DNA from: an uncultured Acidobacteriota bacterium
GTDB taxonomy: Bacteria > Acidobacteriota > Thermoanaerobaculia > Multivoradales > UBA5704
Length of the DNA stretch: 64,000 nucleotides
Assembly: GCA_963770895.1 (NCBI GenBank)
Contig: CAVYRF010000002.1
Coordinates: 3,392,001-3,456,000 of the forward strand
Reading direction: 5' to 3'
Under the pieces are notes generated by a model. It did not search any database. It had not been told where the DNA came from and saw only the letters and a list, made by a program, of their open reading frames with translations. Below are positions 6,030-53,241 of the stretch, in pieces. The number at the start of each line of letters is the position of its first letter. Position 1 is the stretch's first letter. Made by a program: the position numbers and the translations under genes.

Positions 6030-6044
6030 CGGCGGGTCTTGATC

Positions 6045-31519
<25,475 letters not shown>

Positions 31520-33987: not shown

Positions 33988-34053
33988 GCGCGGTGGCCCC
34001 GGCGGCGGCCATCCGGCGGCCGCCCGCCGGCGGGGCCGCCGGGCCGCCGGCGC

Positions 34054-35346
34054 TCACCAGTTGTGCGACAGCAGCTCCGCTTCGCCCAGCAGCTTCTTGC
34101 CGTAGCGGCGTTCGATCTGGGCGTTGATTTCGCCGCCCAGCGGACCGAACATCACCTCCTGCGAGATGCGCTCCATCGGGTGGGTGCCCGAAAAGATGCG
34201 CCCACCGATGATGCGGCGCGCTTCGACGACGATCTCTTCGGCGCACTTGCTGGCGTAGTGCTTGGCGGCGCAGGCCAGGTGGTAGGCGTCGGTGAGCTTT
34301 TCGGCGCTGGGGTGCACCGCCACCTCTTCGATGGCCAGCCCCGCCTGGCAGGCGAACGAACAAGCGCTGCGATAGCGGATCGCCAGGCGGCCGAGGTCGG
34401 TCACCATGCCGTCCAGCTCGGCCAGCGGCTTGTCGTCCGTCCCGCGCACCGAGCGCAGGAACTTGCGCGTCTCTTCCAGGGCGCGCGCCGCGGCGCCCAG
34501 AAACGGCGCGACAAAGAGCGCCTGGTGCCAGGCTACCTGGAACGCGATGATGCTCTTGTCCACCTCCAGCATGTTCTCGGGGGTGATGAAGGTGTTGAAC
34601 GTGATGCGCCGGGTGTCCGAGTCCACCATCGCGGTGGGGAACAGGAACGGCCCGATCTCAACTCCGGGGTTGTCGACCAGCGGGACCATGAACAGCGCCA
34701 CGCCTTCGTTTTCGATGCCGGTGAAGATGAAGGCGAGCTCGCTTTCGGTGGCCAGCGACATGTAGGCGGCGGTGCCGCGCAGGCGAAAGCCGCCGTCCTC
34801 GCGAGTGGCCAGCGAGCCGTAGCTTTCGATCTTGTCGGCATGGATGCGCGAAGTGGTGTTGGCGACCAGCATGTTGGTGGCGGAGAGGGTTTCGAGCAGC
34901 TGGCGCCGGCGGCTCGCGAGCGCCGGATTGTCCACGACGGGGAAGGTGGACAGCGAGCAGGTCACCGCATAGTGGTTGTAGATCGCCAGGCCCACCGCCG
35001 GCGATTCGGCGCCCAGACGGCGCAGCAGGTCGAAGCAGGCGCGGTGCAGGCCGCGCGGATTCTGGTTGTAAGGCAGCGGCAGCTTGGGCAGCTCTTCGGC
35101 GCGAAAGGCGCGATAGAAGATCGTCAGGTCCTTGGCGGCGATGGCCTCGGCCAGGGCGGCTTCGACGCGCGCGGCCTTGGCCGCAAGCTGGGCCGCCGTC
35201 GGCCTGGCGTCGCGGCCCGCCGGGGGCGGCCCGGCCGGCGCCGGGACGGCGGCGAGCACGGGCGCGGCCGGGACGGCGGCGGCGGCGGGAGCCGCCCCCA
35301 GCTCTGCGACCGCCGATTGGTGAGCTCTGCTGCTGTCGTCTGCCAT
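34054..35346 (-). CDS. Acyl-CoA/acyl-ACP dehydrogenase family protein (divergent)
   Basis: GGFRLRGTAAYMS, FLGAAARALEE, ACAAKHYA and IIGGRIF...PMERI match ACAD middle and C-terminal patterns. GGAGG RBS before ATG 35346. Confidence 0.8.
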   Translation of the reverse strand: MADDSSRAHQSAVAELGAAPAAAAVPAAPVLAAVPAPAGPPPAGRDARPTAAQLAAKAARVEAALAEAIAAKDLTIFYRAFRAEELPKLPLPYNQNPRGLHRACFDLLRRLGAESPAVGLAIYNHYAVTCSLSTFPVVDNPALASRRRQLLETLSATNMLVANTTSRIHADKIESYGSLATREDGGFRLRGTAAYMSLATESELAFIFTGIENEGVALFMVPLVDNPGVEIGPFLFPTAMVDSDTRRITFNTFITPENMLEVDKSIIAFQVAWHQALFVAPFLGAAARALEETRKFLRSVRGTDDKPLAELDGMVTDLGRLAIRYRSACSFACQAGLAIEEVAVHPSAEKLTDAYHLACAAKHYASKCAEEIVVEARRIIGGRIFSGTHPMERISQEVMFGPLGGEINAQIERRYGKKLLGEAELLSHNW

Positions 35347-35372
35347 GAGTTCCTCCAACGTTGCAACGCGCG

Positions 35373-37055
35373 TTAATGCCGTGCTCCGGCGGCCACCTGG
35401 GCGGCGCCCTGCACTGCGGAGCGATCCCATTCGATCAGGCCGTCCTTCATCTTGATCAGGCGGTCGGCCAGCGTGTAGTACTGATCGTCGTGGCTGATGA
35501 CAAAGACGGTCTTGCCCATGGCCTTGAGCTCCGGCAAGACCTCAAAATAGAAGATCGCCTTGAACTGCGGGTCCTGGTCCGCCGCCCATTCGTCGAAGAA
35601 GAAGATGGGCCGGTCCTCCAGGTAGGCGGTGAGCAGGGCCAGCCGCTTGCGCTGGCCCTGGGAGAGGTCCAGGGTCGAGATGACGCCGTCTTCGATGGTG
35701 ACCTTCCTGTCGAGCTGGAGGCGCTTGAGGTAGCCGCGCGCCGCTTCGTCCAGATTGACGCGTTCGAGCCCCATGAGGCTGTCGAACAGGTAGAAGTCGG
35801 TAAACACCGCGGCGAACATCTGGCGGTAGCCTTCGCGGTTGTCGCTGGTGATCGGCCGGCCGTCCACCAGGATCTCGCCGCCGTCCGGGATGTAGAGGCC
35901 GGCCAGCAGCTTGGCAAAGGTGGATTTGCCGCTGCCGTTGCCGCCGGTGACGAAGATCAGCTGGCCGGCCTCGAACTCCAGGTCGAGCGGTCCGATGTGA
36001 AAACGCTCGCCGGCGTCGTCGCCGGAGTATTGATAGAAGAGCTGTCTGAGCTCGAGCCGCTGCCAGGCCGGCGCGTCGCCGCGGTCGTCGGCCGAGGTTT
36101 CGACCGCCCTTTCGCTCAGGTCGATGCCCAGCCGATCGAGCTTGCGGACGGCGACGGCGGCGCGGCTGAAGTTGGGCAGCAGCTGGAAGATCGCCTCCAT
36201 CGGGCCGAGCATGTATAGCAGGCAGACGGTGAAGCCGGCGATCACGCGGGCGCCGACGTGCGAGCTGTCGCGGAAGCCGAAGATGATCAGACCGATGGCG
36301 ATGAAAAACAGCTGGTTGCCCCAGATCGTGGTGGCGATCAGCAGGTTGTTGCCGACGGCGGTCGAGCGGCGGATCTTTTCGCCGGTGGGGATCAACGCCG
36401 CGTCGATGAACGCCTGGCGGCGGCGGCGGTGGAGCTTCAGCTCCTTGGCGCCGTGGATCAGGCCGCGGAAGTGGGCAAACAGCTGGTCGGTGTGCTCACG
36501 CAGCTCGCGAAAGTGCTTTTGCGCGAGCCCCATGGCAAAGCTGTAGGTCAGGCTGCCGGCCACCATGAAGCCGAGCACCACAAGGAGCATGCGCCACGAC
36601 AGCCAGCCCATGTAGGCCAGGCAGGTCAGTACGATCGCCGACTGCATGAGCAGCACCGGGATCTGGGTCAGGGCGTTGGACAGTACGGTGATGTCGTCGG
36701 TCAGCGAGGCGAGCAGGCGGTGGCTGCCGATCTCTTCCATGCGGCGCAGCGGCGAAGCCAGGATGCGGCGGCACGACTGCAGGCGGGTTTCGAACATGGC
36801 GCGGGTTGCCAGGTAGTTGAAGATGCTCTGCGTCACCAGGCGGCTGACCGGCACCAGCACGGCGAGCGCGACAAAGCCGTAGAGCAGCCGAGGGTCGCGG
36901 TTGCCGGCGATCACGCTGCTGATGATGGCCAGCCAGGCGGTCAGGCCCAGGCCGCTGATCAGGCCGGTGCACAGCGCGGCGGCGATCTGCGCCCGCGACC
37001 GGCTGACGTTGCGCGACATGCGCAGCAGGTAGGAAATGAGCTTGGCGATCTCCAT
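35373..37055 (-). CDS. Cyclic peptide export ABC transporter (SyrD/PvdE/YojI family)
   Basis: Six TM segments, HGAKELKLH, Walker A GGNGSGKST, LSQGQRKRLAL signature and FDEWAADQDP. Confidence 0.92.
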   Translation of the reverse strand: MEIAKLISYLLRMSRNVSRSRAQIAAALCTGLISGLGLTAWLAIISSVIAGNRDPRLLYGFVALAVLVPVSRLVTQSIFNYLATRAMFETRLQSCRRILASPLRRMEEIGSHRLLASLTDDITVLSNALTQIPVLLMQSAIVLTCLAYMGWLSWRMLLVVLGFMVAGSLTYSFAMGLAQKHFRELREHTDQLFAHFRGLIHGAKELKLHRRRRQAFIDAALIPTGEKIRRSTAVGNNLLIATTIWGNQLFFIAIGLIIFGFRDSSHVGARVIAGFTVCLLYMLGPMEAIFQLLPNFSRAAVAVRKLDRLGIDLSERAVETSADDRGDAPAWQRLELRQLFYQYSGDDAGERFHIGPLDLEFEAGQLIFVTGGNGSGKSTFAKLLAGLYIPDGGEILVDGRPITSDNREGYRQMFAAVFTDFYLFDSLMGLERVNLDEAARGYLKRLQLDRKVTIEDGVISTLDLSQGQRKRLALLTAYLEDRPIFFFDEWAADQDPQFKAIFYFEVLPELKAMGKTVFVISHDDQYYTLADRLIKMKDGLIEWDRSAVQGAAQVAAGARH

Positions 37056-37108
37056 CGGTTCTCCTGGCGGCGAGCGCTGGCTGTCTGACGCGGCGGCCGC
37101 ACGTCACC

Positions 37109-38557
37109 TCACGTTTCCATGAGCACGGTCGAGGAATGGCGGCTGCGCTGCATCGTGTCGCGGAACACCCGGTCGTAGTTGTGCGACAACGCCAGGTACA
37201 GGTCGGCCACCGCGTTACCCGGTCCGGGGTTGCCGAAGAGCACCTCGGCGCCCCAGATGAGCCGCTGCTTCGCGCTGGCCCTCAAATAGCGCAGGCCGTG
37301 GCGGACGAACGCGAAGCGATCGCGCAGCCCTGCCCACTGGATGTTCTTCCACAGGAAGCTGGGGCTGGCGTAGGATTCGTGGTCCAGATTCGCCAGGTAG
37401 AACAGGTAAACCAGCATCGAGTTGATGCGGTAGTAGCGGTCGAGCGCCTTGCCGTAGTCGGCGAGCGGCGCGAGCCCTCCGGATTCGTCCTGGAGCAGGC
37501 GATCGAGGGGCTCGACCAGGGCGAAGGCGCTGTTGAAGGCGACCTGGAGGCCGGTGGAGAACACCGGGTCGATGAAGCCGGCGCTGTCGCCGACGATGAT
37601 CCAGCCGTTGCCGGAGTAGCGCTTGGAACGGTACGAGTAGTCCTTGACGCAGCGGAAGCGTTCGATGCGCCGCATGGTGGGGTTTTGCAGCAGATCGCCG
37701 ATGTAAGGGATGTCCTGTGCGTAGTCGTTGAAGATGGCTTCAAGGCTCTTTTCCTTGGCTGCGTCCTTGACCGTCTGCTGGCTGAGCACCACCCCCAGCG
37801 ACAGCACGTTCCTGGCGATCGGGATGTACCAGGCCCAGTCGCGGTGGTTGCGGTGGACGCACAGCTTGAAGTTGAGATCGCGGTCGGTGTTGGTGATTTC
37901 GATGTCGCCCTGCCAGTGGCTGAACACCGCCATCTTGTTCTCAAGCAGGGGGTCCGGGTACCAATTGTCCTTGAGCTGGTGGTTGATCACCGCTCCCTGT
38001 CCCGAGGCGTCGATGATCCAGCGGCCGTACGCGCGGTGGGTCGCTTCGGGGTCGTCGCCTGCCAGGTTCTTGTATTCGACGCCCACCGCGCGGTCGCCCT
38101 GGAAGAGCACGCGCTTGACCAGATGCTCTTCGCGCACGTCGACGCCGTGGCGGCGGGTGTTGCGCAGCAGCACTTCGTCGAGCGTGGCGCGCGCCATCTG
38201 GAAGGCGTAGGGCCGTTCGCCCGGCTCGTTGACCAGCTGGGACGAGAAATAGATTTTGCTGCTCTTGTCGTGGCGGACGAATTCGAGCCCCTTCTTCTTT
38301 ACAAAGTTTGCCGCCTTCAGCTCGTCGTAGACGCCCAGCTCGCGAAAGGCGGTCAACCCGAAGGCGGTGATCGATTCGCCGATGTGGAAGCGCGGAAAGA
38401 GCGCGCGCTCCAGCATCAGTACGCGATGCCCGCGCTTTGCCAGCATGGTGCCGCAGGTGGTGCCGGACGGACCGCCGCCGATGATCACCACGTCGAAGTG
38501 CTCGGCGGAATTACCGTTCGGGGACGGTAACGGAGATGGGTTGTCTGCCGTGGTCAT
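37109..38557 (-). CDS. FAD-dependent halogenase (carrier-protein/phenol-type flavin halogenase family)
   Basis: GGGPSG FAD motif, FPRFHIGES, WAWYIP (WxWxIP) and GDSAGFIDPVFSTG. Confidence 0.8.
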   Translation of the reverse strand: MTTADNPSPLPSPNGNSAEHFDVVIIGGGPSGTTCGTMLAKRGHRVLMLERALFPRFHIGESITAFGLTAFRELGVYDELKAANFVKKKGLEFVRHDKSSKIYFSSQLVNEPGERPYAFQMARATLDEVLLRNTRRHGVDVREEHLVKRVLFQGDRAVGVEYKNLAGDDPEATHRAYGRWIIDASGQGAVINHQLKDNWYPDPLLENKMAVFSHWQGDIEITNTDRDLNFKLCVHRNHRDWAWYIPIARNVLSLGVVLSQQTVKDAAKEKSLEAIFNDYAQDIPYIGDLLQNPTMRRIERFRCVKDYSYRSKRYSGNGWIIVGDSAGFIDPVFSTGLQVAFNSAFALVEPLDRLLQDESGGLAPLADYGKALDRYYRINSMLVYLFYLANLDHESYASPSFLWKNIQWAGLRDRFAFVRHGLRYLRASAKQRLIWGAEVLFGNPGPGNAVADLYLALSHNYDRVFRDTMQRSRHSSTVLMET

Positions 38558-38787: not shown

Positions 38788-38861
38788 TTGTTCATGCGGT
38801 GCGCGCTGGCGCGGGCGGCGGTCGGAATGGGCAGCAGGGACACGCTGACCGGTGCGCCGCC

Positions 38862-40418
38862 ATGACCCAACCCATCCAGGAAACCGTGCAGCGCGGCGTC
38901 GGGAGCGAGCCGCCGAGCGTGGACGAAGATCTGGTGCGCCACGGCCTCGCCATGCGGCCGGTGCTCGCGGCCCTGCTGCGCGAATCCGGCGAGCTGCCGC
39001 TGCTCGACTACGCGGCGGGCTTTTTCACCCGCGGCGGGCCGCCGGTCTCACCGGTGGGCCTGGCCGTGGTCGAGCGCGCGGCGGGGCGGCTTTTCGGCGC
39101 CCGCGCCGGCGCCGAAATCGCCGCCCAGCTGCGCTGCCAGCCGGCGATCAACACCGCCGAGCACCTGGCGCCGATGTTCCATCCGCGGCGCTTCCAGAGC
39201 AACCTGCTGGGCGCCTATGCCGCCGCCGAACAGGGAGCGGCCTGCATGCCGGTGTTGGCCTGCTCGAACATCTCGCTGTCCAATTCGTCCCATCCGCGCG
39301 GCATCTTCTGGAATCAGCAGCCGCTGCAACTCATCCCCCGCAACCCCCATGGAACCGTCCACACCTGGCCTGCCGTCGAGCGCCAGGTCTTCCTGGACCT
39401 GCCCGCGGCGGCCCGCGTCGCCGCCGGCATGGCGTACCTGACGGCGGCCGTGCCGCAGCTCGCGGCCCTACCGGTCGGTGAGCAGCGCAACCGGGTGCGC
39501 AAGCGGCTCGCCGGGGCGCTCAAGGAGCTGTCCGGCAACCCGGCCAAACGGCTGCCCAGCACCGAGCTGCCCGAGCAGGTGCAGGCGCTGCTGCGCGCGG
39601 CGCTGCCTGGGGCGCGCGCGACGGGCGCCGCCCAAGAGATCGAGGTGCGGACCTGCCTGGTCGAGGCGCTGCCTCCTGAGCTCTTTGCCGAGCCGCGCTA
39701 CATCCACCAGGTCTGCCGCTTGAACGGCGCGCTGTGGGAGCGCGCCATGGGCGGCCGCCTGCCGCGGCTCATCTATCTGCCGATGGAAGAGATCTCCACG
39801 GCTCTGCTGCGCTACGCGCTGCGCGATCCACACGACCCGCTCCATGCGATGCTGCTGAATGCGGACGCCCGTGCTCTCGCCTTGGACCTGTTTGCCGATC
39901 TGCCCTACGCCTGGTCCGAGTCCGGAGGTACGCATTTCTTCTGGCAGCTGGGGCCCAAGGGGCAGAGGTTCCCAATGCGCCACGACGGCGCCGCCCTCTG
40001 CGGACAGGGCTGTCGCATCGAGTTGCGGCAAAACGGCCTGCTGGACGCCCTGGACGCCCTCGCGATCGTACCGGCGACCCTGCTGCAAATGCTGCTGCTG
40101 GTCCACCACGGCTTCCGCTGCCTGGGCGGCTTCAATCAGATCCAATTTCTGCCGGCGATGCGCCGACAGATGCGCGAGTTCTGCCGTCAGACCGGCCGCG
40201 CCGCGGTCGCCGACGAACGCTACGATGCCGAGCTGCCGAGCGACTTTCTGGCCGGTCCCCTCTTCTGGTGGCGCGGCGCACCCGAGGCCCCGGCCTCGCT
40301 GGACACCTTCCTGCGCCAACCCGAGCGCAGCCGCGAAGAAGCGGCCTGCGCCGTCCGCCGTCTGAGCCTGCGCAGCGCCACCCTGCTGGGTCTGCCCGAC
40401 CTGATCCAGCTGCTCTGA
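38862..40418 (+). CDS. Hypothetical protein with enzyme-like motifs, about 518 aa
   Basis: Long ORF with GC3-biased codons and its own promoter. Motif-like blocks INTAEHLAPMFHP, CSNISLSNSSHPRG, GGTHFFW and CLGGFNQIQFL. Confidence 0.75.
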   Translation: MTQPIQETVQRGVGSEPPSVDEDLVRHGLAMRPVLAALLRESGELPLLDYAAGFFTRGGPPVSPVGLAVVERAAGRLFGARAGAEIAAQLRCQPAINTAEHLAPMFHPRRFQSNLLGAYAAAEQGAACMPVLACSNISLSNSSHPRGIFWNQQPLQLIPRNPHGTVHTWPAVERQVFLDLPAAARVAAGMAYLTAAVPQLAALPVGEQRNRVRKRLAGALKELSGNPAKRLPSTELPEQVQALLRAALPGARATGAAQEIEVRTCLVEALPPELFAEPRYIHQVCRLNGALWERAMGGRLPRLIYLPMEEISTALLRYALRDPHDPLHAMLLNADARALALDLFADLPYAWSESGGTHFFWQLGPKGQRFPMRHDGAALCGQGCRIELRQNGLLDALDALAIVPATLLQMLLLVHHGFRCLGGFNQIQFLPAMRRQMREFCRQTGRAAVADERYDAELPSDFLAGPLFWWRGAPEAPASLDTFLRQPERSREEAACAVRRLSLRSATLLGLPDLIQLL

Positions 40419-40538
40419 CGGCGTGCCGGTTGGCGCTGCACAGTGGAGATCTGCAGCTGGGTCACCGGCGTGCCGGGGGTATGCCTGCGAGTGTCCGCTT
40501 GCCTGGTGTCTGCGTTCTATATAAAATCCGCGTTATCC

Positions 40539-42155
40539 ATGATGGTGACGAGTTCCCAGACTGAGTGGGAACGGCAGCTGACCGCTTCCACCGCGTCCGC
40601 TGCGGACCGCCCGGTCCGCCTTCCGGAGCTGCTGGTTCCGGCGCTGACGGTCCTGGCGCACCCCGACCTGCGGCGGGTGGGGGAGCGCGTCCTGCTGCCG
40701 GCCCTGGGATCTGGGCGGACGGTACCGCTGTCGCGCCTGTCGCCGCTGTTCGCGCAACCCGGAAACCAGGTGGCGAGGCCGCTTGCCGAGCCCCACTTGA
40801 GCAGGCGCCCGATCCATCTGTCCCCTTCGGACGGCCAGCCGGGCTCGCTCCGCCTGGTGGTGCCGGGCGGAGGCCGGCCGATTGAGGTCCTGGGTGCCCC
40901 GTCGCCGGACGAAATTGCGCCCGCCGACCTCCACCGCGGCGTTGTGCTCCTGTGGGCCGATCGCGTGGCGCTGCTCCTCCACCTGCTGCCGTCGGGCGTG
41001 CCCCGCGAAGTCGAGCGCTTCGGCATGATCGGCGAAAGTGCCGCCCTGAACCGCCTGTGCGCCGAGATCCGGCGAGTCGCGGCAGCCGCGACTCCCGTCC
41101 TGCTGTGCGGCGAAACCGGCACCGGCAAGGAGCTGGTGGCCCACGCGATCCACGCCGCCGGGCCGCGCCGCGCCGGCCCCTATGTCACCCTCAACCTGGG
41201 CGCGATCCCACCGGCCCTTGCCGCCGCGGAGCTCTTCGGCGCTGCCCGCGGCGCCTTCACCGGCGCAGACCGGAGGCGAGCCGGCCACTTCGAGCGTGCC
41301 GCGAGCGGCACGCTGTTCCTGGACGAGATCGGCGAGGCGCCGCCGGAGGTCCAGGTGCTGCTGCTGCGGGCGCTGGAGTGCGGCGAGATCCAGCCTGTCG
41401 GGTCCGAGGCGCCGCTGCGCGTCGAAGTGCGCTGCGTTGCCGCCACCGACGCCGACCTCGAGGCGGCCGCCGCCCGCGGTGGGTTCCGCGCTCCCTTGCT
41501 GCATCGCCTGCGCGGCTTCGAGATCCGCATGCCGGCGCTGCGCCAACGCCGGGACGACGTCGGCCGGCTCCTGGTGAGCTTCCTGCGCCAGGAGCTTGCG
41601 GCACTGGGCCGCGACGGCCTGCTCGTCACCGCGAGCCCGCACGGCCGGCCGTGGTTGCCCGCGGGCCTGGTGGCGCGCCTGGCCGTCCACGAATGGCCCG
41701 GCAACGTGCGCGAGCTCAGAAACGTCGCGCGCCACCTGGCGGTGAGCTGCCGCGACGCCGATCAGGCCGAGCTGCCGGAAGGATTGCTCCAGGCACCCGC
41801 CGCCGCCAACAACGAGGAGCTTTCCCAGCCGGCGGCGCCCACCGGCTGGCGCCCGCCCCGGCGGCGCGCGGAGTACCGCCCCGGCTCCGAGATCGCGCAC
41901 CCCGAACTGCTGGCGGCGCTGCGCGCCTGCCGCTTCAACCTGGCGGCCGCCGCGGCAGCGTTGCGCATCTCGCGCTCTTCGCTCTATGCCCTGCTCGCGC
42001 GCCATGGCGGGGTCCGCAAGGCCGGAGACCTGACCCGGGTCGAGATCGCCGCCGCCTTGGAGCGTTCGGGCGGCGACCTCGACGCGGCCGCGGACGCGCT
42101 GGCGGTTTCGCCGCACGGACTCAAGATTCGCTGTACCGAGCTGGGGAGAAACTGA
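40539..42155 (+). CDS. sigma54-dependent enhancer-binding protein (FHA-like N-terminus, AAA+, two Fis-type HTHs)
   Basis: GETGTGKE, ELFG..RGAFTGA, LFLDEIG and WPGNVRELRN. Two C-terminal HTH-like segments. Start codon uncertain. Confidence 0.9.
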   Translation: MMVTSSQTEWERQLTASTASAADRPVRLPELLVPALTVLAHPDLRRVGERVLLPALGSGRTVPLSRLSPLFAQPGNQVARPLAEPHLSRRPIHLSPSDGQPGSLRLVVPGGGRPIEVLGAPSPDEIAPADLHRGVVLLWADRVALLLHLLPSGVPREVERFGMIGESAALNRLCAEIRRVAAAATPVLLCGETGTGKELVAHAIHAAGPRRAGPYVTLNLGAIPPALAAAELFGAARGAFTGADRRRAGHFERAASGTLFLDEIGEAPPEVQVLLLRALECGEIQPVGSEAPLRVEVRCVAATDADLEAAAARGGFRAPLLHRLRGFEIRMPALRQRRDDVGRLLVSFLRQELAALGRDGLLVTASPHGRPWLPAGLVARLAVHEWPGNVRELRNVARHLAVSCRDADQAELPEGLLQAPAAANNEELSQPAAPTGWRPPRRRAEYRPGSEIAHPELLAALRACRFNLAAAAAALRISRSSLYALLARHGGVRKAGDLTRVEIAAALERSGGDLDAAADALAVSPHGLKIRCTELGRN

Positions 42156-42158
42156 GCC

Positions 42159-44801
42159 ATGCTGCCCCGCCGGGTGGGTCCTTACCGGCTGGAGCAACTG
42201 CTGGGCAAGGGCGGCATGGGTGTCGTCTACGCCGCCTGGGACGAGCGGCTCGACCGGCGCGTCGCCCTCAAACAGATCCGGCCCGAGGTGGCCGCGGACT
42301 CGCTGCGACGCGAGCGCTTCCGGCGCGAGGCTCGCGCCCTGGCCCGGCTCGACCACCCCGCCATCGTCCGCATCCACGACCTGCTCGAGACCGCGGAGGG
42401 CGATTGGCTGGTGCTGCAGTACGTCGAGGGCCCGACGCTCGCAGAGCTCCTGCGCCGGGGACCGCTGCCCGGCAGCCAGGTGGTTGGCCTGGCGCGGGAC
42501 ATCCTGGGAGCCCTGGAGGCGGCGCACTCGCGCGGCCTGCTCCACCGCGACCTCAAGACCGAGAACGTGATGCTCGCGCCGACCGGTCATGCGATGGTCC
42601 TGGACTTCGGCCTCGCCAAGCTCCTTGCCCCCGAAACCGGCGCAGCGGCCGGCGAGACCCTCGCCGGCACCGGCGGCGTCGTCGGCACCTATCGCGCCAT
42701 GTCGCCCGAGCAGGCCAACGGGCGCGCGCTCGATGCCCGGTCGGACCTGTTTTCTCTGGGTGTCCTGCTCTACGAGGCGGCGACCGGCACCTCGCCGTTC
42801 CAGGCCGCGACGCCGGTCGCCACCCTGACCCTGGTCTGCACTCACCTCCAGGCGCCCACCAGCGAGCTGATCCCCACGCTCCCCGAGCCGCTTGCGACGC
42901 TGATCGACTCGCTGCTCGAGAAGGACCTTGAGCGGCGGCCGCGCAGCGCAGCCGCGGCGCTGGCGCGTCTCGACGATTCGCCCACCACCGCCGCGTACCC
43001 GCAAGCTCCTGCCGCCGCGACCCTGGCGCCGGCGCCTCAGCGCTTGCACGCTCGCCCGTGGCTTCCCACCCTGCCGCGGGCCTTGGATGGCAGGCCGTCG
43101 TACGCCGCTCTCGGCGGCTGGCGCACCCGCCGGTGGCCGTGGGCCGCAGGCCTGCTGCTGCTGGTGGCGGCCGGCCTGCTGCTGGCCTGGTGGTTGCGTG
43201 TTCCGGGCGCGCGGCGCGAACCGCTCTACGTCGCCGTTGCCAGGCCGGAAATCGGGCTCGGCGCCGCCCGGGAGGAGGTGGTGCTGGCCGGCGCCGCGCT
43301 CCAGGCGGCTTGCCTGCGGGCGCTCGCTTCGCTGAAAGGGGTCGCGGCGCTACCTCCCGGCGCCGTGGATCCCGGCGAGCGGCCCTTGACTCCCCGGCGG
43401 CTGGCGCAAATCCTGGCCGCGGACCAGGTTGTCACCGCGACCCTCAATTGTCAGTCTCACCAGTGCCAAGCCGTGCTCCGCCGGCAGCAGGGCAGCGACG
43501 GCAGGATCGTTGCGAGCACGATGCCTTTCGAGGTGCCTCTGGACGACCCGCACCTGCTCGACGCCGCCGTATCGACCTATCTGAAACCGCTCTTCCCCGA
43601 ACATCGCTTGCGGCCGGAGTCTTCGCCGCTCCAGGTGCGCGGCGAGGACTACCAGCGCTTCCTGCGCGTCCAGCGACTTTGGAACGAGCAGCGGCCGGCC
43701 GATCTGCAACCGCTCCTGGCCGACCTGGACCGGGTGCGATCCGGCTCGCCCCTGTTCATCGACGCCTACGTGCTGGAAGCGAGCCTCGAGGGCTATCGCG
43801 CCTTCCAGACCCGCGACCCACTGTACGTCGAACAGGCGTTCAACCTGATTGCCCAGGCGCGGCGGCTGGCGCCCGCCGACGCGCAGACGTTGGTCAGCTG
43901 GTTCGGCGTCGCGATGAACACCGGGCGCTTCGACGAGGCAGAAAAGGCGCTGCACGAAATCGAGCTGCGCCTGCCCGGGGACGTGCGGACCCTGCAGCGC
44001 CGGGCGCTGCTGCGCGAGCACCAGGGCGATCGACGGCATGCCCTGGAGCTGCTGCGCACCGCGGTGTGGCGCCACCCCAGCGCCGCATATCTGACCGATC
44101 TGGCCAACATGGAAATGCGGCAAGGAGAGATCCCGGCGGCCCGCGCCACGATGGAGGAGCTGCTGCGGCGTGTTCCCGAGGACCACGCCGGCCAGAACCT
44201 CCTGGCCGGGCTCGAGCTGAAAGCGGGCAACATGGAACGAGCTACCACGCTGTACGCCCGCATGGCCGGCAGCCGGCCGAGCTTCGGCGTGCTATCCAAC
44301 CTGGCTTTCGCCCAGCTGCTGCTGGGCCGCTACGGCGAGGCGGCCACGAACTATCGGGCCGCCTATGCCTTGGCCCCCACCAGCTATGCCGCCAGCCTCA
44401 ACCTGGGCGATGCCGAGCTGCTCCGGGGCCAGCCGGCGGCGGCCCGCGCGCTCTACCGGCAGGCGCTCGCCCAGGCGGCACAGGATCCGGGGCGAGACGC
44501 ACCGCCCGCGCTCGTCGCCGCGGCGCAGGCGGAGGCGCACCTCGGACGCGGGTTCGAGGCGGCCGCCACCATCGAGCGAGCGGTGGTCGCAGCGCCCAAC
44601 GATCCCGAGATCGCCTTTTACGCCGCCCTGGTCTACGCCTTGATCGGCGAAACCGCCTCCGCCACCGCCAGTGCCGGCCGCTCCCTGGCCGGAGGCATCA
44701 ACGCCGGCTGGTTTTCCTTGCCTTGGTTTGACGAGCTACGGAAGTCGCCGGAGTTTCTTCGCCTCCTGGGCAAGGCGGCGGCTGCACCGGCCCCTCGTTG
44801 A
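42159..44801 (+). CDS. Membrane Ser/Thr protein kinase with extracytoplasmic TPR region
   Basis: GKGGMGVV, VALK, HRDLKTEN, DFG and MSPE motifs. TM segment WAAGLLLLVAAGLLLAWWL, then TPR-like helical repeats. Starts 3 nt after the activator stop. Confidence 0.92.
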   Translation: MLPRRVGPYRLEQLLGKGGMGVVYAAWDERLDRRVALKQIRPEVAADSLRRERFRREARALARLDHPAIVRIHDLLETAEGDWLVLQYVEGPTLAELLRRGPLPGSQVVGLARDILGALEAAHSRGLLHRDLKTENVMLAPTGHAMVLDFGLAKLLAPETGAAAGETLAGTGGVVGTYRAMSPEQANGRALDARSDLFSLGVLLYEAATGTSPFQAATPVATLTLVCTHLQAPTSELIPTLPEPLATLIDSLLEKDLERRPRSAAAALARLDDSPTTAAYPQAPAAATLAPAPQRLHARPWLPTLPRALDGRPSYAALGGWRTRRWPWAAGLLLLVAAGLLLAWWLRVPGARREPLYVAVARPEIGLGAAREEVVLAGAALQAACLRALASLKGVAALPPGAVDPGERPLTPRRLAQILAADQVVTATLNCQSHQCQAVLRRQQGSDGRIVASTMPFEVPLDDPHLLDAAVSTYLKPLFPEHRLRPESSPLQVRGEDYQRFLRVQRLWNEQRPADLQPLLADLDRVRSGSPLFIDAYVLEASLEGYRAFQTRDPLYVEQAFNLIAQARRLAPADAQTLVSWFGVAMNTGRFDEAEKALHEIELRLPGDVRTLQRRALLREHQGDRRHALELLRTAVWRHPSAAYLTDLANMEMRQGEIPAARATMEELLRRVPEDHAGQNLLAGLELKAGNMERATTLYARMAGSRPSFGVLSNLAFAQLLLGRYGEAATNYRAAYALAPTSYAASLNLGDAELLRGQPAAARALYRQALAQAAQDPGRDAPPALVAAAQAEAHLGRGFEAAATIERAVVAAPNDPEIAFYAALVYALIGETASATASAGRSLAGGINAGWFSLPWFDELRKSPEFLRLLGKAAAAPAPR

Positions 44802-45165
44802 TGAAGACCGGGTCCGGTGAGGAGATGAGCGCGCCGCCAAACGCCACGGTGAGCTTGAACCCGTGCGTCATGTCCTGCGGCGAGGAGTTGAAGTCCCAGA
44901 GCGAGAAATTCGAGCTGTTGACCTGGTGGCACAGAAACCAGGGCGGCGGCATGACCGGCTCCTCGCTGGTGACGTCGAACCATTGCATCGGATAGCTCGG
45001 AAAGGTCGCCCCGGCGTCGGTCGATGCCTCGTCGAGGGTGAACGTGATCAAACTGATGTCTTGGCCCGGCAGGCTGATGGGGAACGGCGCCGGCGCGTCG
45101 TCGAGCGTAATGGTGATCGTTAATGCGGTGGTGTCTAACGTCACCGTCAAAGGCCAGATCTCCAT
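44698..45165 (-). CDS. Small acidic beta-rich protein, DP-EP family-like
   Basis: Strong RBS AAAGGAGGAGAGG before ATG 45165. C-terminal ISSPDPVFINEGP motif. A sigma54 promoter lies directly upstream. The 3' tail overlaps the kinase gene convergently. Confidence 0.7.
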   Translation of the reverse strand: MEIWPLTVTLDTTALTITITLDDAPAPFPISLPGQDISLITFTLDEASTDAGATFPSYPMQWFDVTSEEPVMPPPWFLCHQVNSSNFSLWDFNSSPQDMTHGFKLTVAFGGALISSPDPVFINEGPVQPPPCPGGEETPATSVARQTKARKTSRR

Positions 45166-45210
45166 GTCCTCTCCTCCTTTTGATTGGTTGTTGGCTGCGC
45201 TTGCGCTACG

Positions 45211-45227
45211 AGCATAGGGCGTGCCAG
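45211..45227 (-). promoter_or_regulatory. sigma54 (-24/-12) promoter for the DP-EP-like gene
   Basis: Minus strand CTGGCACGCCCTATGCT, with GG-N10-GC spacing. Confidence 0.75.
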
Positions 45228-45280
45228 GTGTGCGCCGCTGGGCGCTGCGCACCGGGATCTACCACTTTCTAATCGAGCGA

Positions 45281-45308
45281 GACCGTCGGACGGTACCGTC
45301 CGACGGTC
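45281..45308. promoter_or_regulatory. Perfect 28-bp palindrome, candidate enhancer (UAS) for the adjacent sigma54 activator
   Basis: GACCGTCGGACGGTACCGTCCGACGGTC is its own reverse complement and consists of two tandem ACCGTC-N-GACGGT inverted repeats. Confidence 0.7.
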
Positions 45309-45368
45309 GAAAGCAGCGTAACGGTCGATCGCAGCGCGGCGAGAGAGTCCCTCCGCTCTGGCGCACCG

Positions 45369-45384
45369 TGGCACGCCTCTTGCC
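45369..45384 (+). promoter_or_regulatory. sigma54 (-24/-12) promoter for the thaumatin-like gene
   Basis: TGGCACGCCTCTTGCC matches the TGGCACG-N4-TTGC consensus. Confidence 0.8.
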
Positions 45385-45504
45385 CTGGGAGTCGCCGCCG
45401 GCAAGCAAGGCAGCACCCGATCGATCGCAGGCTCGCGTTCCATCCGCATGGCGCGGGCGGGGCGCGGGGAACCGCTACCTCAACCGACAAGGAGCTCGAA
45501 ACTC

Positions 45505-46800
45505 ATGATCCCTCAATGTCCACCGATTCCGCGCCCAAGCATCCGCCGGACCCAGTGCTCAGTTGGCAGCATGATCGTGATCACGCTGCTTTTGACTGCA
45601 GCGGCTCGGGCGCAGGCAAACCGCGTGTTGCGGTTCGACAACCAATGTTCGCAGGCGGTCTGGATCGGAGCGACCGGCGGATTCACGCAGCCCTGTGGCG
45701 CCGGCAACTCCTGCCCGAGCGGCCAGGCGTGTCTCACCACCCGCAGCACTCCCGGCTGTTTTTGGGTGCTGCCGTTGCCGGCGAGCGGCTCGCTGCTGCT
45801 CGCGGCCGGCACGAGCACCAAGGTGACTCTGGCGACGCCGCCACAAAGCAATGTCAAATGGAGCGGCAATATCTACGGCAGCACCGGCTGCAACAGCGGC
45901 GGTCAGAGCTGCCAGACCGGAGCTTGCGTGGGTGGCTCCTGCCCGGCCGGCACGGGACCGGTCGGACCGACCACGCTTGCCGAGCTCACGCTGCTGACCA
46001 ATGGACCGGACACCTACGACGTCTCGATGATCAACGGTGTCAATCTCCCCTTGTCGATCGCGCCCACCCCGGGACAGAAGTTTGGCACGCCGCCCGCGGG
46101 TGCGGCGGCCGACTATTTCTGCGGCGCTCCCGGCAAACCTCGGCCTCTCAACTCCGCTCTGCAGGGCTGTACCTGGCAGTTCAATCCGACGATCAAGCAA
46201 ATCGATCAGTCGCCGTTCCTGCGCATGGTCGGCCCCGGCGGCAACGCGTGCACGCAGGACAGCGATTGCACGTCGCCCCAGCTGTGCGGCCTGGCGATGA
46301 CGGTCGGTCTGACGACGGTGAGCCAGGTCTGCGGCACGCAGATCGGTTGGTGGACCGCCGACGAGGTGTGCACGTTTACCGGCTCCGCCTTCGGTGCGCC
46401 GTTCAACTGCTCCGCCGGTGTTTACGGTCAGGGGACCAACACCAACCTCTACCTCTGCAGCGGCGTCAACGCCAGCACCTGCTACGGCTCCAGCTCGACG
46501 GCGACCTGCTGCGGCTGCCCGCAGTGGACGTTCGATGGCAAGGCCCTGGCGGCGGCCATGAGCTGCGGCGCGAACAACCAGACGACCAATCCGTCATGGA
46601 ACCAGATCGCTCAGCCGTGGGCGCAGTTTGCCAAGCAGGCGTGCCCGACGGCATACAGCTTCCCGTTCGACGACGCCACCAGCACGTTTACCTGCGCCGG
46701 CAGCAACTCCGCTGCCAATGCCGTCGACTACACGATCACCTACTGCCCGGGAGGCAAGAGCGGAGTGCCGCCGCAAGTTGCGTCCAGTCCGCGGAAGTGA
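45505..46800 (+). CDS. Secreted Cys-rich thaumatin-like (PR-5 / beta-1,3-glucanase-like) protein
   Basis: NQCSQAVW, GPTTLAELTL, DTYDVSMINGVNLP, KQACPTAYSFPFDDATSTFTC and YTITYCP. Signal peptide ending AARAQA. Alternative start at 45571. Confidence 0.88.
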   Translation: MIPQCPPIPRPSIRRTQCSVGSMIVITLLLTAAARAQANRVLRFDNQCSQAVWIGATGGFTQPCGAGNSCPSGQACLTTRSTPGCFWVLPLPASGSLLLAAGTSTKVTLATPPQSNVKWSGNIYGSTGCNSGGQSCQTGACVGGSCPAGTGPVGPTTLAELTLLTNGPDTYDVSMINGVNLPLSIAPTPGQKFGTPPAGAAADYFCGAPGKPRPLNSALQGCTWQFNPTIKQIDQSPFLRMVGPGGNACTQDSDCTSPQLCGLAMTVGLTTVSQVCGTQIGWWTADEVCTFTGSAFGAPFNCSAGVYGQGTNTNLYLCSGVNASTCYGSSSTATCCGCPQWTFDGKALAAAMSCGANNQTTNPSWNQIAQPWAQFAKQACPTAYSFPFDDATSTFTCAGSNSAANAVDYTITYCPGGKSGVPPQVASSPRK

Positions 46801-46891: not shown

Positions 46892-49113
<2,222 letters not shown>

Positions 49114-49410: not shown

Positions 49411-52400
49411 GTGATCGAAGACCATGCCGCGGCGCACCAGCACGGAATCGACAGCCTGTTTCCGGGCGACGGTGAAATGGCCACCTTGATGCGGCAGCGG
49501 GACTGGTCGCGAAGCCCGCTCGGTCCGCCGGAACAGTGGCCGCAGACCCTGCGCGCCATCGTGCGCATCATGCTCACCTCGCGCTTTGCCATCTGGCTGG
49601 GGTGGGGGCGCGAGCTGACCTTCCTTTACAACGACGCCTACCGCGCCATGACGCTGGGGGCGAAGCACCCCGGGGTGCTCGGCCGGCCGACGCGCGAGGT
49701 GTGGGCGGAGATCTGGCCGCAGATCGGACCGCGGATCGAAAAGGTCCTGGCGACGGGCGACGCCACCTGGGACAGGGCGTTGATGCTGTTCCTCGAGCGC
49801 AGCGGCTACCCCGAGGAGACGTATCACACCTTCTCCTACAGCCCCATCCACGACGACCAGGGAATCATCCGCGGCAACCTCTGCATCGTCTCCGAGGAGA
49901 CCGAGCAGGTGATCGGCGAGCGCCGCCTGGCGTTGCTGCGCGAGCTTGCCGCCCAGCTCGCCTCGGTCAACACGACGGAGGACGTGCTCGCGGCGACCGA
50001 GCGCGCGCTCGGCACGGGCAATCGCGACGTGCCGTTTTTCCTGCTCTACCGGTTCGACGAAGAGTGCCGCCATGCACAGTTGGTATCGAGCAGCCCGATG
50101 CCAGGCGGGGCTGCGGGTCTGCATGCGACCCTCGACTGCGCGGCCGACTCACCCTGGCCGGTGGCGGCGCTGCTGGCTCGGCTGGAGCCGATCCTGGTGG
50201 AGACGCTCCCCGGCAGCGGCGAGTGGCCGCGAGGGCCGTGGGACCGCGCGCCCCAGAGCGCCGTCATGATGCCCGTCGCGCAGCAGGGGCAGGCGCGGCC
50301 GGCCGGTTTCCTCATCGCCGGCCTCAATCCGCACCGGCGCTTCGACGAGAACTACCAGAGCTTCGTCGGCCTCCTGGTCGGCCAGATCTCGGCCGGCCTC
50401 AGCGGCGCCTGGGCGTATGAGGCGGAGCGGCGGCGCGCCGAGGCCCTGGCCGAGTTGGATCGGGCCAAGACGGTCTTCTTTTCCAACGTCAGCCATGAGT
50501 TCCGCACGCCGCTGACGCTGATCCTGGGGTCGCTGGAGGACCTGCGCGACGGCGGCCAGCTGGCGGCGGAGGCCCACTACCCGCTCGCCATCGCGCAGCG
50601 CAACGGCCAGCGCCTGCTGCGGCTGGTCAACTCGCTGCTCGACTTCTCCCGCATCGAGGCTGGGCGGGTGCAGGCCAGCTACGAGCCGGTCGACCTGGCG
50701 GAGACCACGGCCGACCTGGTGAGCGTCTTCCGGTCGACGACCGAGCGCGCCGGCCTGCGGCTGGTGGTCGCCTGTCCGCCGGTCGGCGAGCCCGTCTACC
50801 TCGACCGCGGGATGTGGGAAAAGGTGGTGCTGAACCTCCTGTCCAACGCCTTCAAATTCACCCTCGAAGGGGAGATCGAGGTGCGCCTGGAGCGCCTCGC
50901 AGGGGCTGGGACCGTCCAGGTCGTGGTGCGCGACACCGGCATCGGAATACCGGAGCAGGAGCTGCCTCACCTGTTCGAGCGCTTCCGCCGGGTCGAGGGG
51001 GCCAAGGGGCGCACCCAGGAGGGGAGCGGCATCGGTCTCGCCCTGGTTCAGGAGCTGGTCAAGCTGCAGGGCGGCAGCGTGACGGTCGAAAGCGTTGTGG
51101 GGCGCGGGACCACGTTCACCGTGACGTTGCAGCTGGGCACGGACCATCTGCCCGCGGACCGCATCGCGCGGCGCGCCGCGGAGACGGTCGCAGCCGCCGG
51201 TGCGACGAGCGGCGGCGGCGCCTCCGCCGTGGTCGAAGAGGCGCTGCGCTGGCTCCCGCAAGAGGCCGAGTCCGCGCCGCTCCTGGCGCTGGACGACCGG
51301 ATGCCGATGGACGGCCCGGCGCGGCCGCGCGGCAGCGAGGTGATCCTGCTTGCCGACGACAATGCCGACATGCGCGCCTACATCCGCCGCCTGCTCGAGC
51401 CGCGCTGGCACGTCGAGACGGTGTCCAACGGCCAGCAGGCGCTGGCCGCGTCCCGCCTGCGGCGTCCCGACCTGGTGATCTCCGACGTCATGATGCCCGA
51501 GCTGGACGGCTTCGGGCTGCTGCAGGCGCTGCGCGCCAACCCCGCGACGCGCGATCTGCCGGTGATGCTGCTCTCCGCCCGCGCCGGTGAGGAAGCCAGG
51601 ATCGAAGGGATCGCGGCGGGCGCCGAGGACTACCTGGTCAAGCCGTTTTCGGCGCGCGAGCTGCTGGCGCGCATCGAGGCGCAGCTCCTGCGGACGCGGC
51701 TGCGCGCCCTGGAAGACGCCAGCGCCCGGCGGCTGGCCTCGGTCTTCGCGCAGGCCCCGGTGGCGATCGCGCTGCTGCGCGGCCCGGAGCACGTTTTCGA
51801 GGTGGCCAACCCCTTCTACCTGAAGCTGGTCAACGACCGGCCGCTGCTCGGCATGCGGCTGCGCGACGCGTTGCCGGAGGTGGTCGCCCAGGGCATCGTC
51901 GATCTGCTCGACGGGGTCTTTCGCAGCGGCCAGCCCCACCTGGGCAAGTCGCTGCCGGTGATGCTCAACCGCGGGCCGGAAGGCGCGCCCGAAGAGTGCT
52001 TTTTCGACTTCGTGTACCAGCCGTTGTTCGATGGGAGCGGCACGGTCGAGGGCATCGCGGTCGTCGCCTACGACGTGAGCGGCCTGGCGCGGGCGCGCCG
52101 CGAGGCCGAGGTGGCCAATCGCGCCAAGGACGAGTTCCTGGCCATGCTGGGACACGAGCTGCGCAACCCGCTGGCGCCGATCAGTACCGCGCTGCAGCTG
52201 CTCAAGATGCGCGGGGTGGAGGCGGCGGAGGTCGAGCGGCGGGTGATCGAGCGCCAGGTCAAGCACCTGGTGACCCTGGTCGACGATCTGCTCGACGTGT
52301 CGCGCCTGACTCGCGGCAAGCTGCAGCTCGAAGTCAGCCGGGTCGAGCTTTCCAGCGTCGTCGGCCAGGCGATCGAGACGGTGGCGCCGGCCCTCGAACA

Positions 52401-53241
52401 GCGCCGGCTCGCGCTGACGGTGGCGGTTCCGGCGACCGGCCTGGCGGTGGACGGCGACGAGCACCGGCTGGTCCAGGTGGTGGCCAATCTCCTGGGCAAC
52501 GCCGCCAAGTACACCGATCCAGGCGGCAGCATCACGATCACCGGCGCGCGCGAGCAGGGCGACGCGGTGCTGCGCATCCGCGACAACGGCATCGGGATCA
52601 CGCCGGAGATGTTGTCGCGCATCTTCGACCTCTTCGTGCAGACTCCGCAGGCGCTCGACCGCTCGCATGGTGGCCTCGGTCTCGGCCTCGCCCTTTCCCG
52701 CGGCCTGCTGGCGCTGCACCATGGCTCCATAGCAGCGCGCAGCGACGGCCCCGGTCGCGGCGCCGAGTTCACCGTGCGGCTGCCGCTGCCGACCACCCCC
52801 CAGGCGCGCCCCGCCGGCGGCGCCGCAGCGGCGGAGCCGGACCTGGCGGCCGCTCAAGGCCTGCGGATCCTGATCGTCGACGACAACCGCGACGCCGTCC
52901 AGATGCTCGCCAGCGCCCTGGCCATGCAAGGCCACAGCGTGCAGTGCGCCTACGACGGCCCCCAGGCCCTGGCGATGGCGGAGAAGCTGCCGCCGCAGGT
53001 GGCGATCCTGGACCTGGGCCTGCCCCTGATGGACGGCTTCGAGCTGGCAAGCCGCTTTGCCGCCGACCCCGCCCTGCGGCGCGCCAGGCTCATCGCCGTC
53101 ACCGGCTACGGCCAGAAGGACGACCGCCGCCGCACCACCGCAGCCTCCTTTGCCGCCCACTTCGTGAAGCCCGTCGACCTCGCCCAGCTGAGCGCCGCCA
53201 TCCACGATCTTGCCGCGCCCGACCGCAGCGCACAGCCCTGA
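49411..53241 (+). CDS. Hybrid sensor histidine kinase (PAS-GAF-HisKA-HATPase-REC-PAS-HisKA-HATPase-REC)
   Basis: [15 protein letters not shown]-terminus. Two H-boxes ([16 protein letters not shown]) with N/G boxes. Two receivers (SDVMMP, LDLGLP). GGAG RBS before GTG. Confidence 0.93.

Follow-up and report, generated by a model that had tools for sequence, protein, structure and literature searches.

A conserved gene cassette for a sensor kinase, a sigma-54 activator and a DP-EP-like protein, with a variable divergent arm, in Acidobacteriota

We analysed a 64-kb stretch of DNA (hereafter the window) from the 8.16 Mb genome of an uncultured soil bacterium of the Acidobacteriota (70.7% G+C). Open reading frame (ORF) calls and Pfam searches placed four genes between 40.4 and 46.8 kb of the window. 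They encode a sigma-54 activator with a predicted FHA-like N-terminal domain, a Hanks-type Ser/Thr kinase with a TPR-bearing sensor, a small protein resembling the DP-EP family (DUF1888) and a thaumatin-family protein. Comparison with related loci indicated that the genes for the activator, the kinase and the DP-EP-like protein form a conserved signalling cassette of Holophagales/Thermoanaerobaculia-type Acidobacteriota. The thaumatin-family gene lies on a divergent arm whose content differs between loci. The genes and the sites predicted around them are as follows (aa, amino acids):

40499..40527, plus strand: sigma-70-like promoter match TTGCCT-17-TAAAAT, just 5' of the activator ATG
40443-42155, plus strand: ORF of the sigma-54 activator, likely ATG at 40539, 538 aa
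42159-44801, plus strand: Hanks-type Ser/Thr kinase gene, 880 aa
44698-45165, minus strand: DP-EP-like small gene, 155 aa
45212-45226, minus strand: predicted sigma-54 (-24/-12) promoter of the DP-EP gene, TGGCACGCCCTATGC
45281-45308, no strand: perfect 28-bp palindrome (14+14 nt) made of two abutting 13-bp sites, ACCGTCGGACGGT and ACCGTCCGACGGT
45369-45383, plus strand: predicted sigma-54 promoter of the thaumatin gene, TGGCACGCCTCTTGC, an exact consensus match
45505-46800, plus strand: thaumatin-family gene, 431 aa

The activator stop codon and the kinase start codon were separated by 3 nt. This junction, and the activator start at 40539, had both been proposed in an earlier reading of the same DNA (the original prediction), and the ORF coordinates agreed with them. 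The DP-EP and kinase genes are arranged tail-to-tail and overlap on opposite strands by 104 nt (44698-44801); no terminator-like site was found between their ends in the window. Because the DP-EP gene ends inside the kinase gene and no such site separates the two, induced DP-EP transcription would probably run antisense into the kinase 3' end. The DP-EP and thaumatin genes both have good ribosome-binding sites, and first-codon-position G+C is low in the thaumatin gene and likewise in the DP-EP gene. The sigma-70-like consensus was matched once in the region, against 0.2 matches expected from shuffled sequences; on this weak evidence, the site is a candidate for a constitutive promoter driving the activator-kinase operon.

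The 340-bp gap between the DP-EP and thaumatin genes holds both sigma-54 promoters, pointing outwards. Transcription of DP-EP is predicted to start near 45200, about 35 nt before its ATG, and that of the thaumatin gene near 45395, about 110 nt before its ATG. Searching the 64-kb window for TGGCACG-N4-TTGC with up to one mismatch returned the TGGCACGCCCTATGC and TGGCACGCCTCTTGC sites only. These two sites compare with an expectation of 2.1 per window, so the count alone is not above chance. The whole-genome scan returned 109 sites at the same threshold, of which six were exact, the thaumatin promoter among them. Divergent pairs of sites within 400 bp of each other were found twice in the genome against 0.15 expected. 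The placement of the two promoters, unlike their count, is above chance.

The palindrome lies between these promoters, its centre 70 bp and 76 bp from their GG elements. The pattern ACCGTC-N1-2-GACGGT occurred three times in the genome, twice within this palindrome, and two CCGTC-N0-3-GACGG sites within 80 nt of each other were found nowhere else genome-wide. The third ACCGTCGGACGGT site (C2:1668977) was taken as a chance occurrence; it apparently falls within coding sequence and has no sigma-54-like site nearby. We propose that the palindrome is a shared enhancer (upstream activating sequence) for the activator. The two divergent promoters and the perfect palindrome between them had been anticipated in the original prediction, and the scans located all three.

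Related loci were collected by four routes. Querying the window's own genome and 40 relatives with the small protein gave a match in 8 of 41 genomes, and an even sample of the phylum, queried with a profile of the DP-EP-like family, gave a match in 4 of 401. Scanning one genome per species with a peptide pattern derived from 12 closer sequences yielded 5 loci, and contigs from JGI metagenomes yielded 14. A single script was then used to score 29 loci uniformly: the window, a paralogue in the same genome, 13 loci from other genomes and 14 from metagenomes. Two pairs among them are near-identical (L033/L038 and L035/L036).

The kinase sensor domain had a homologue encoded convergently after DP-EP in 27 of the 29 loci, which is every locus that could be assessed; in the remaining two, the contig stops 0 and 47 nt after DP-EP. 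The two genes overlapped or were separated by at most 56 nt in 25 of these 27 loci, with overlaps of up to about 170 nt (L032), and the gap reached 1.5-1.8 kb in L026 and L042. An activator AAA+ domain preceded the kinase in 15 of the 16 loci whose contig extends 3.6 kb or more in this direction. The FHA-like N-terminal domain was present in 12 loci, and the activator and kinase genes abut or overlap in L011/L014, L016 and L022-L025. The linkage of kinase, activator and DP-EP that the original prediction had expected to be conserved was thus seen in this neighbourhood survey. The cassette is patchily distributed. A single-protein query detected DP-EP in none of nine genomes of the same genus (G001-G009), the FHA-like N-terminal domain was found in none of the three same-genus genomes searched for it, and both are present in other genera of the family.

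Sites resembling those of the window recurred upstream of DP-EP. In 20 of 29 loci, the 450 nt upstream of DP-EP contained at least two [CT]GTC-N1-2-GAC[GA] palindromes, against a background, measured in the rest of the same loci, of 0.07 per 450 nt. A GG-N10-GC site matching at least 9 of 12 consensus positions was found on the DP-EP strand within 450 nt in 18 of 29 loci (background 0.09 per 450 nt per strand), and several further loci carried 8/12 sites with a TGG(C/T)A...TGCT appearance. Most loci had two or three copies of ACCGTC-N-GACGGT; the type (A/G/C)TGTC-N-GACA(C/T/G) took its place in L022, L025, L027 and L032. The expectation that sigma-54 promoters and an enhancer-like palindrome would recur upstream of DP-EP was therefore borne out in most loci. 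These data also bear on the simplest alternative, in which the promoter-like sites and the palindrome arose by chance in a GC-rich intergenic region and the four genes are unrelated neighbours. The two sigma-54-like matches in the window are indeed what the expectation of 2.1 predicts. Against this, the gene order recurs, palindromes and promoters recur upstream of DP-EP in most of the 28 further loci, the paired palindrome is unique in the genome, and divergent pairs exceed their expectation (2 against 0.15). We regard a chance origin as hardly credible.

The paralogue in the window's own genome (L030; G000:C1:818000-837999, about 7800-14840) carries genes for an FHA-like activator and for a kinase that has this same sensor, together with a DP-EP-like gene in convergent orientation. 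Ahead of DP-EP it also carries genes for two PixA/AidA-type inclusion-body proteins (PF12306, 3e-7) and what reads by inspection as an extra, degenerate DP-EP-like ORF, which had no Pfam match. From their arrangement, the PixA pair, the extra ORF and DP-EP appear to form one co-directional operon with DP-EP last. This operon is preceded by a sigma-54-like site, GGCATG-N4-TTGC, read by eye and missed by the scoring scans, and repeats of GGCATCGCG stand in place of the ACCGTC palindrome.

The activator matched the Pfam families Sigma54_activat (PF00158, 1.5e-55), AAA_lid_14 and HTH_8 (2.3e-9). A Walker A motif (GETGTGKE), the GAFTGA motif and a Walker B-region motif (LFLDEIGE) could be read in its sequence. 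A second repeat resembling a helix-turn-helix (HTH) was visible in the alignment of activators, giving two HTH_8-like motifs at the C-terminus. The order of the protein is an N-terminal tail with Thr18, the FHA-like domain (about 30-155), the AAA+ domain and the two HTH_8-like motifs. The same genome encodes rpoN (DNA-binding domain, 3.7e-65). By these sequence features the activator is a member of the NtrC-type AAA+ sigma-54 enhancer-binding proteins; it is predicted to activate promoters from upstream sites. Its second HTH has the form VS-x-HGL in loci with ACCGTC-type palindromes and VSK-x-GL-x-RR in L022, L023, L029 and L030; it differs again in L025. This covariation of HTH and palindrome type is suggestive, the sequences being few and related.

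About 190 N-terminal residues of the activator received no Pfam assignment. Homologues of this region numbered 101 at 90% clustering; nearly all were sigma-54 activators of about 535 aa, none with an N-terminal Pfam domain. A sequence-profile search with the N-terminal domain found no solved structure. An AlphaFold model built from 38 sequences had a predicted local distance difference test score (pLDDT) of 84, with values above 90 over residues 30-150. FHA domains headed the Foldseek list obtained with this model (ArnA, OdhI, GarA, DgcB and CT664). VIA-align gave the same result: all 50 of the 50 rows listed were FHA domains, the best being that of ArnA (Z 10.4, root-mean-square deviation 3.9, 108 residues aligned). 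The model therefore folds as an FHA beta-sandwich in a domain that has no FHA sequence match. G48-x-R50, S65-R66 and S88-R89 were invariant or near-invariant among the aligned activators. Thr18, in the low-confidence N-terminal tail of the model, was near-invariant among the 38 activators. One related genome, G013, encodes six activators with this FHA-like N-terminal domain, and four of their regions were fetched (L045-L048). A kinase differing in its C-terminal part is present in one of them and no kinase in another; a third is apparently broken, and in the remaining one a near-consensus sigma-54 promoter of its own comes after the activator.

The kinase matched Pkinase (PF00069, 8.6e-46) and several TPR families. 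The catalytic motifs VALK, HRDLKTEN and DFG were read in its sequence and were invariant in the homologue alignment. The kinase domain spans residues 9-263 and is followed by one hydrophobic segment (about 325-346) and a predicted periplasmic region with TPR repeats, as expected for the membrane Ser/Thr kinase with a TPR domain that had originally been proposed. Two cysteines of the periplasmic part, C431 and C436 (C-x4-C; window about 43449-43466), were invariant across 14 homologues; they may form a disulfide, or a metal/redox site of the sensor. A feature search with periplasmic residues 346-600 returned unnamed and TPR-type clusters only. Since the kinase domain matched the PD-T4-6 and mad6 models of PADLOC, and the activator matched RtcR-like models, the cassette could be read as a Ser/Thr-kinase-based anti-phage defence system of the PD-T4-6 or MADS kind. 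We judge this very improbable. The matches are limited to generic kinase and AAA+/HTH domains, PADLOC had no match for DP-EP or the thaumatin-like protein, the kinase carries a large predicted periplasmic sensor, and there are no other defence genes nearby.

The small protein carries the motif SPDP-VFINE-GP and a 30-residue Pro/Arg-rich tail. Its relatives are rare. A HMMER scan of 1.8 billion representative sequences found about 45 small proteins, and a word-indexed homology search returned the query only. The relatives share ...W...FNS... and a C-terminal DPxI(I/V)NEPP, with D118 near-invariant and P119 invariant. The structural model (pLDDT 88.7) had as its best Foldseek match SO1698 of Shewanella oneidensis (PDB 3njh; E 1.5e-5, template modelling score 0.53-0.69). 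Profile alignment set the S-P-D-P of the window protein on S114-P115-D116-P117 of SO1698, in which Asp116-Pro117 is reportedly the self-cleavage site. The DP-EP family model PF08985 did not match the window's small protein even at E<=10, and the genome search with it also found nothing; the same model matched 8 of 40 aligned relatives, the best at 2.6e-8. The earlier description as DP-EP-like thus stands for the fold and the SPDP motif and fails for a Pfam match of the window's own protein. On the modelled fold and this motif, the small protein is a remote DP-EP member, which may cleave itself at the Asp-Pro bond.

The next fold matches after SO1698 were MakD and MakC of Vibrio cholerae (PDB 6tct, 8rqy), at 9-11% identity (MakD: E 4.5e-4, 9%). 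MakC and MakD are co-expressed with a secreted toxin and are described as accessory proteins of the cytosol whose function is unknown (PMC11484084). We treat this modelled likeness as a lead only. Inspection of the DP-EP-like protein revealed no signal peptide. The idea that DP-EP serves as a ligand of the periplasmic TPR domain, which the original prediction had raised, was judged unlikely on that ground and dropped.

The second arm was scored in the same way. A divergent site matching at least 10 of 12 positions was present in 9 of 29 loci, and these sites of the divergent arm came closer to the consensus than those on the DP-EP side. They face the following genes:

Window: thaumatin-family protein
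L013: 146-aa protein, then a 1384-aa G8/CEMIP beta-helix protein
L024: Rv2525c-like glycoside-hydrolase-like protein
L028: Lipase_3 (class-3 lipase)
L036, L040: small proteins without a family, by inspection
L035, L041, L044: contig ends before the divergent gene

The genes opposite DP-EP differed from locus to locus, so the variable cargo foreseen in the original prediction was found. In L024, ATAGCTTGTCCGGA occurs as three tandem copies between the divergent promoter and the start codon of the Rv2525c-like gene (reverse strand, about 9478-9520). PixA-like pairs stand beside the module in two further loci, L015 and the own-genome paralogue. The L015 pair is divergent and made up of small proteins, of which one is weakly PixA-like; no strong divergent promoter was scored at this locus.

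The variability of this arm also admits a different explanation: DP-EP would be the sole designed output, for example as a self-cleaving stress or assembly protein, and the divergent promoters would be recent and opportunistic, serving neighbours that share no theme and merely came to lie beside a strong enhancer. It would account for the restriction of a strong divergent promoter to nine loci, for cargo families that are mutually unrelated, and for the ordinary or housekeeping neighbours of the four loci checked that have no divergent promoter, namely ValRS (L022), LeuRS (L025), a PurM-like AIR synthase-related gene (L027) and a metal-resistance gene (L023). The presence of a thaumatin homologue in only 1 of the 40 relatives searched points the same way. 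The divergent promoters are nevertheless the better matches (10-11/12), one of them being among the six exact sites of the genome, and the position of the enhancer in the window is symmetrical, with 70 bp to one promoter and 76 bp to the other. We find this explanation decidedly unlikely; it departs from a designed two-armed switch in emphasis more than in mechanism.

The thaumatin-like protein of the window scored 83.1 bits against PF00314 (gathering cut-off 27.4). Compared with the PDB, it matched 25 thaumatin-like chains at E<=0.001, the best at 3.6e-16. Its N-terminus carries a signal-like segment. The Legionella LegT equivalog model (NF045527) gave 200 bits against a cut-off of 1200, the thaumatin domain alone being shared. 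The protein belongs to a long-form clade of 182 clusters, whose named members come from Polyangiaceae/Myxococcota, Thermoanaerobaculia/Acidobacteriota and a few Proteobacteria; some members carry ricin-type lectin domains. The spread of this clade, the single homologue among the 40 relatives and the low first-codon-position G+C together fit a locally acquired cargo gene. The protein may be antifungal.

Collectively, the cassette, its enhancer and the variable cargo arm are real; the phospho-relay from kinase to activator, the role of DP-EP and an antifungal role of the thaumatin-like protein are inferred. We propose the following mechanism. The activator-kinase operon is probably expressed constitutively. 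The C-terminal HTH motifs of the activator would bind the tandem 13-bp ACCGTC-N-GACGGT palindromes in the next intergenic region, and the bound activator would open the two flanking sigma-54 promoters, each at a distance of about 70 bp. The invariant arm would produce the small cytoplasmic DP-EP protein, with its predicted SO1698-type beta-sandwich and SPD/P self-cleavage motif. The optional arm would produce whichever gene sits there, in this case the predicted secreted thaumatin-family protein. The TPR domain of the kinase may sense an extracellular cue, as the original prediction supposes. The kinase may switch the activator by phosphorylating Thr18 of its N-terminal tail; alternatively, the FHA-like domain may dock on a phospho-Thr of the kinase itself. 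By analogy with OdhI/GarA and DgcB, phosphorylation or docking would relieve or promote assembly of the AAA+ ring. DP-EP would be a built-in feedback or accessory component and not cargo, because it is the sole invariant target and is cytoplasmic. The cargo would serve interactions with other organisms or their polymers. We give the mechanism as a whole a probability of roughly 0.6. This value comes from its two parts: activation of two promoters by the activator from the enhancer is judged likely, and for the phospho-relay from kinase to activator, drawn by analogy, we would put the chances at about even.

Several results weigh against this model. Both transcript starts are predictions, and many DP-EP-side promoters match only 8-9 of 12 consensus positions. 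L016, L026 and L034 had no promoter or enhancer pair; L026 is also without an activator, and L016 has a co-directional gene upstream and no intergenic region. None of the four regions fetched from G013 contained DP-EP. Activators with the FHA-like domain thus also occur without it, and these regions indicate that the activator family is wider than the DP-EP cassette. The loci were gathered by DP-EP queries and short conserved peptide patterns, so the sample is biased to one subfamily and its kin are not independent. The term 'secreted effector' does not hold for all cargo: a signal peptide is apparent in the thaumatin-like and G8/CEMIP proteins, and the PixA-like proteins and the lipase have no obvious one.

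Further points of the same kind concern the activator N-terminal domain, whose FHA assignment comes from its predicted fold. The Pfam FHA model did not match the window activator at E<=0.01. A PF00498 profile search of the genome gave 11 matches, the N-terminal domain not among them, and hhalign of this domain against those 11 canonical FHA domains gave a probability of 2.7%. At the phospho-Thr-binding positions the G-x-R and two S-R pairs are present, and neither the His nor the N-G was seen; with the N-G missing, phospho-Thr binding is putative. The original label of an FHA-like activator is accordingly upheld by the fold comparisons (Foldseek, VIA-align) and not by the sequence comparisons (Pfam, PF00498, hhalign). 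Finally, in L014 a GAF domain replaces the FHA-like domain, with kinase and DP-EP kept; the cis-elements of this locus are limited to an 8/12 promoter, with no palindrome.

These results can be accommodated by a sigma-54 switch that works as described, in which the kinase signals without phospho-Thr recognition and the FHA-fold domain is a degenerate scaffold. Such a domain might bind the kinase or a partner in a phosphate-free manner, or sense a small molecule, and the kinase substrates would lie elsewhere, possibly in DP-EP. The lack of an FHA sequence signal agrees with this, as does L014, in which the kinase and DP-EP are retained beside an activator with GAF. The L014 kinase is 38% identical in its kinase domain and 61% in its sensor domain, which suggests that DP-EP tracks the sensor-bearing kinase and not the activator N-terminal domain. 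Set against this alternative are the activator/kinase junctions, abutting or overlapping in many loci, and the exclusive presence of FHA domains in the 50 VIA-align rows listed. The S-R and G-x-R positions are also conserved, and hhalign sets the LSRR of the window (S88-R89) opposite the FHA motif VSR-H, at a non-significant probability. The conserved Thr lies in a low-confidence N-terminal tail, as in switches of the OdhI/GarA/DgcB type. On balance, we find the scaffold explanation somewhat unlikely and retain a Thr-phosphorylation relay to the activator.

Other genes of the window flank the cassette. Directly 5' of the activator (38799-40418, plus strand) is a 539-aa ORF that has a coding-like composition and matches no Pfam family. 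A two-domain haem peroxidase of the catalase-peroxidase type flanks the thaumatin gene (46892-49099, minus strand), followed by a large hybrid histidine kinase with GAF, HisKA, HATPase, receiver and PAS domains (49411-53241, plus strand). Further upstream, two giant genes on the plus strand (6030-17948 and 18818-31519) encode nonribosomal peptide synthetase (NRPS) modules (Condensation, AMP-binding, PP-binding) and a hybrid of polyketide synthase (PKS) and NRPS (KS-AT-KR-DH plus C-A-T). The region 3' of them (32184-38557) holds an acyl-CoA-dehydrogenase-like gene, an ABC exporter and a tryptophan-halogenase-like flavoenzyme. By their domain content, the NRPS/PKS genes adjoining the module look like a halogenated lipopeptide/polyketide gene cluster. 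The palindrome of the activator is absent from this cluster, and linkage of the 539-aa ORF, the catalase-peroxidase or the halogenase to the module was not conserved in related loci.

The cassette can be compared with several known systems. Myxococcus xanthus has activators of sigma-54 promoters that carry FHA domains and reportedly act with Ser/Thr kinases (Jelsbak, Givskov and Kaiser 2005). Similarly to those proteins, the activator has an N-terminal regulatory module of FHA fold in place of a receiver domain, its genome is rich in Hanks kinases, and control by Thr phosphorylation is implied. Unlike them, its N-terminal domain is undetectable as FHA by sequence, its gene shares an operon with one specific sensor kinase, and the target promoter, the enhancer and the invariant DP-EP target can be read from the DNA, in a lineage that is Acidobacteriota. 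OdhI/GarA and Bdellovibrio DgcB (PDB 4qcj, 2kb3, 7rj3, 6hc1), which were among the best structural matches of the N-terminal domain, are FHA proteins switched by a phosphorylated N-terminal tail. The activator resembles them in having a flexible tail with a near-invariant Thr before an FHA-like fold, and its tail may be phosphorylated in the same way; it differs in output, which is an AAA+ sigma-54 activator here and an inhibitor of a metabolic enzyme, or a diguanylate cyclase, in those proteins.

SO1698 is called an aspartic peptidase in PDB entries 3njf-3njm. The small protein shares its fold and the C-terminal S-P-D-P-x-I-I-N motif, at about 19% identity, and adds the 30-residue tail. We know of no genomic role described for SO1698; the DP-EP family is here the fixed target of a predicted sigma-54 switch. 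PspF-PspA is a pair in which a small induced target feeds back on its sigma-54 activator. In both systems the conserved sigma-54 target beside the activator gene is a small protein of the cytoplasm, a layout that suggests feedback by DP-EP. The two systems have no relation in sequence or fold. DP-EP may bind the activator or the kinase. In the thaumatin-like protein, the blocks TLAE-TL...D-YDVS..G-NLP and CP-AYS...DD-STFTC align with plant PR-5/thaumatin-like proteins (PDB 3zs3, zeamatin 1du5, osmotin 1pcv); it differs from these in being twice as long, with insertions, and in belonging to a bacterial long-form clade.

Two-way sigma-54 regions that share an enhancer are known, for example in nif genes. 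Literature searches found no description of this cassette; the topic of FHA, enhancer-binding proteins and kinases gave work on type VI secretion and Myxococcus. The claim that the circuit had no prior description can accordingly be kept for this cassette; as a theme, the joint action of a Ser/Thr kinase and an FHA-bearing sigma-54 activator is in print for Myxococcus. What we could not find in print is the divergent FHA-fold activator in an operon with this sensor kinase, the fixed DP-EP/DUF1888 target, an enhancer of the form ACCGTC-N-GACGGT and a second arm whose gene varies.

A bolder interpretation is that the cassette is a portable sense-and-fire device. DP-EP would be an autoproteolytic timer or feedback element acting on the kinase-activator pair, and the other arm would be a docking site for horizontally acquired weapons or polymer-degrading proteins (thaumatin-like, G8/CEMIP, lipase, lysozyme-like). 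We hold this to be unlikely as it stands. If true, it would give DP-EP/DUF1888 its first biological role and provide a genetically clean pair of kinase and FHA activator for mechanistic study.

The control of bacterial transcription by Hanks-type kinases is poorly understood. Genome surveys have revealed sigma-54 activators that carry FHA domains and, to our knowledge, few of these have been matched to a cognate kinase, a binding site and a target. In this cassette the DNA itself shows the kinase, the activator, the predicted site and the target, and all four reappear in different lineages, so that the relay can be tested with few constructs. Knowledge of DP-EP/DUF1888 has been limited to the structure of one self-cleaving protein; here the family is placed as the invariant target of a regulatory cassette. 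The two-way sigma-54 enhancer would serve different genes picked up in different genomes, here that of a bacterial long-form thaumatin.

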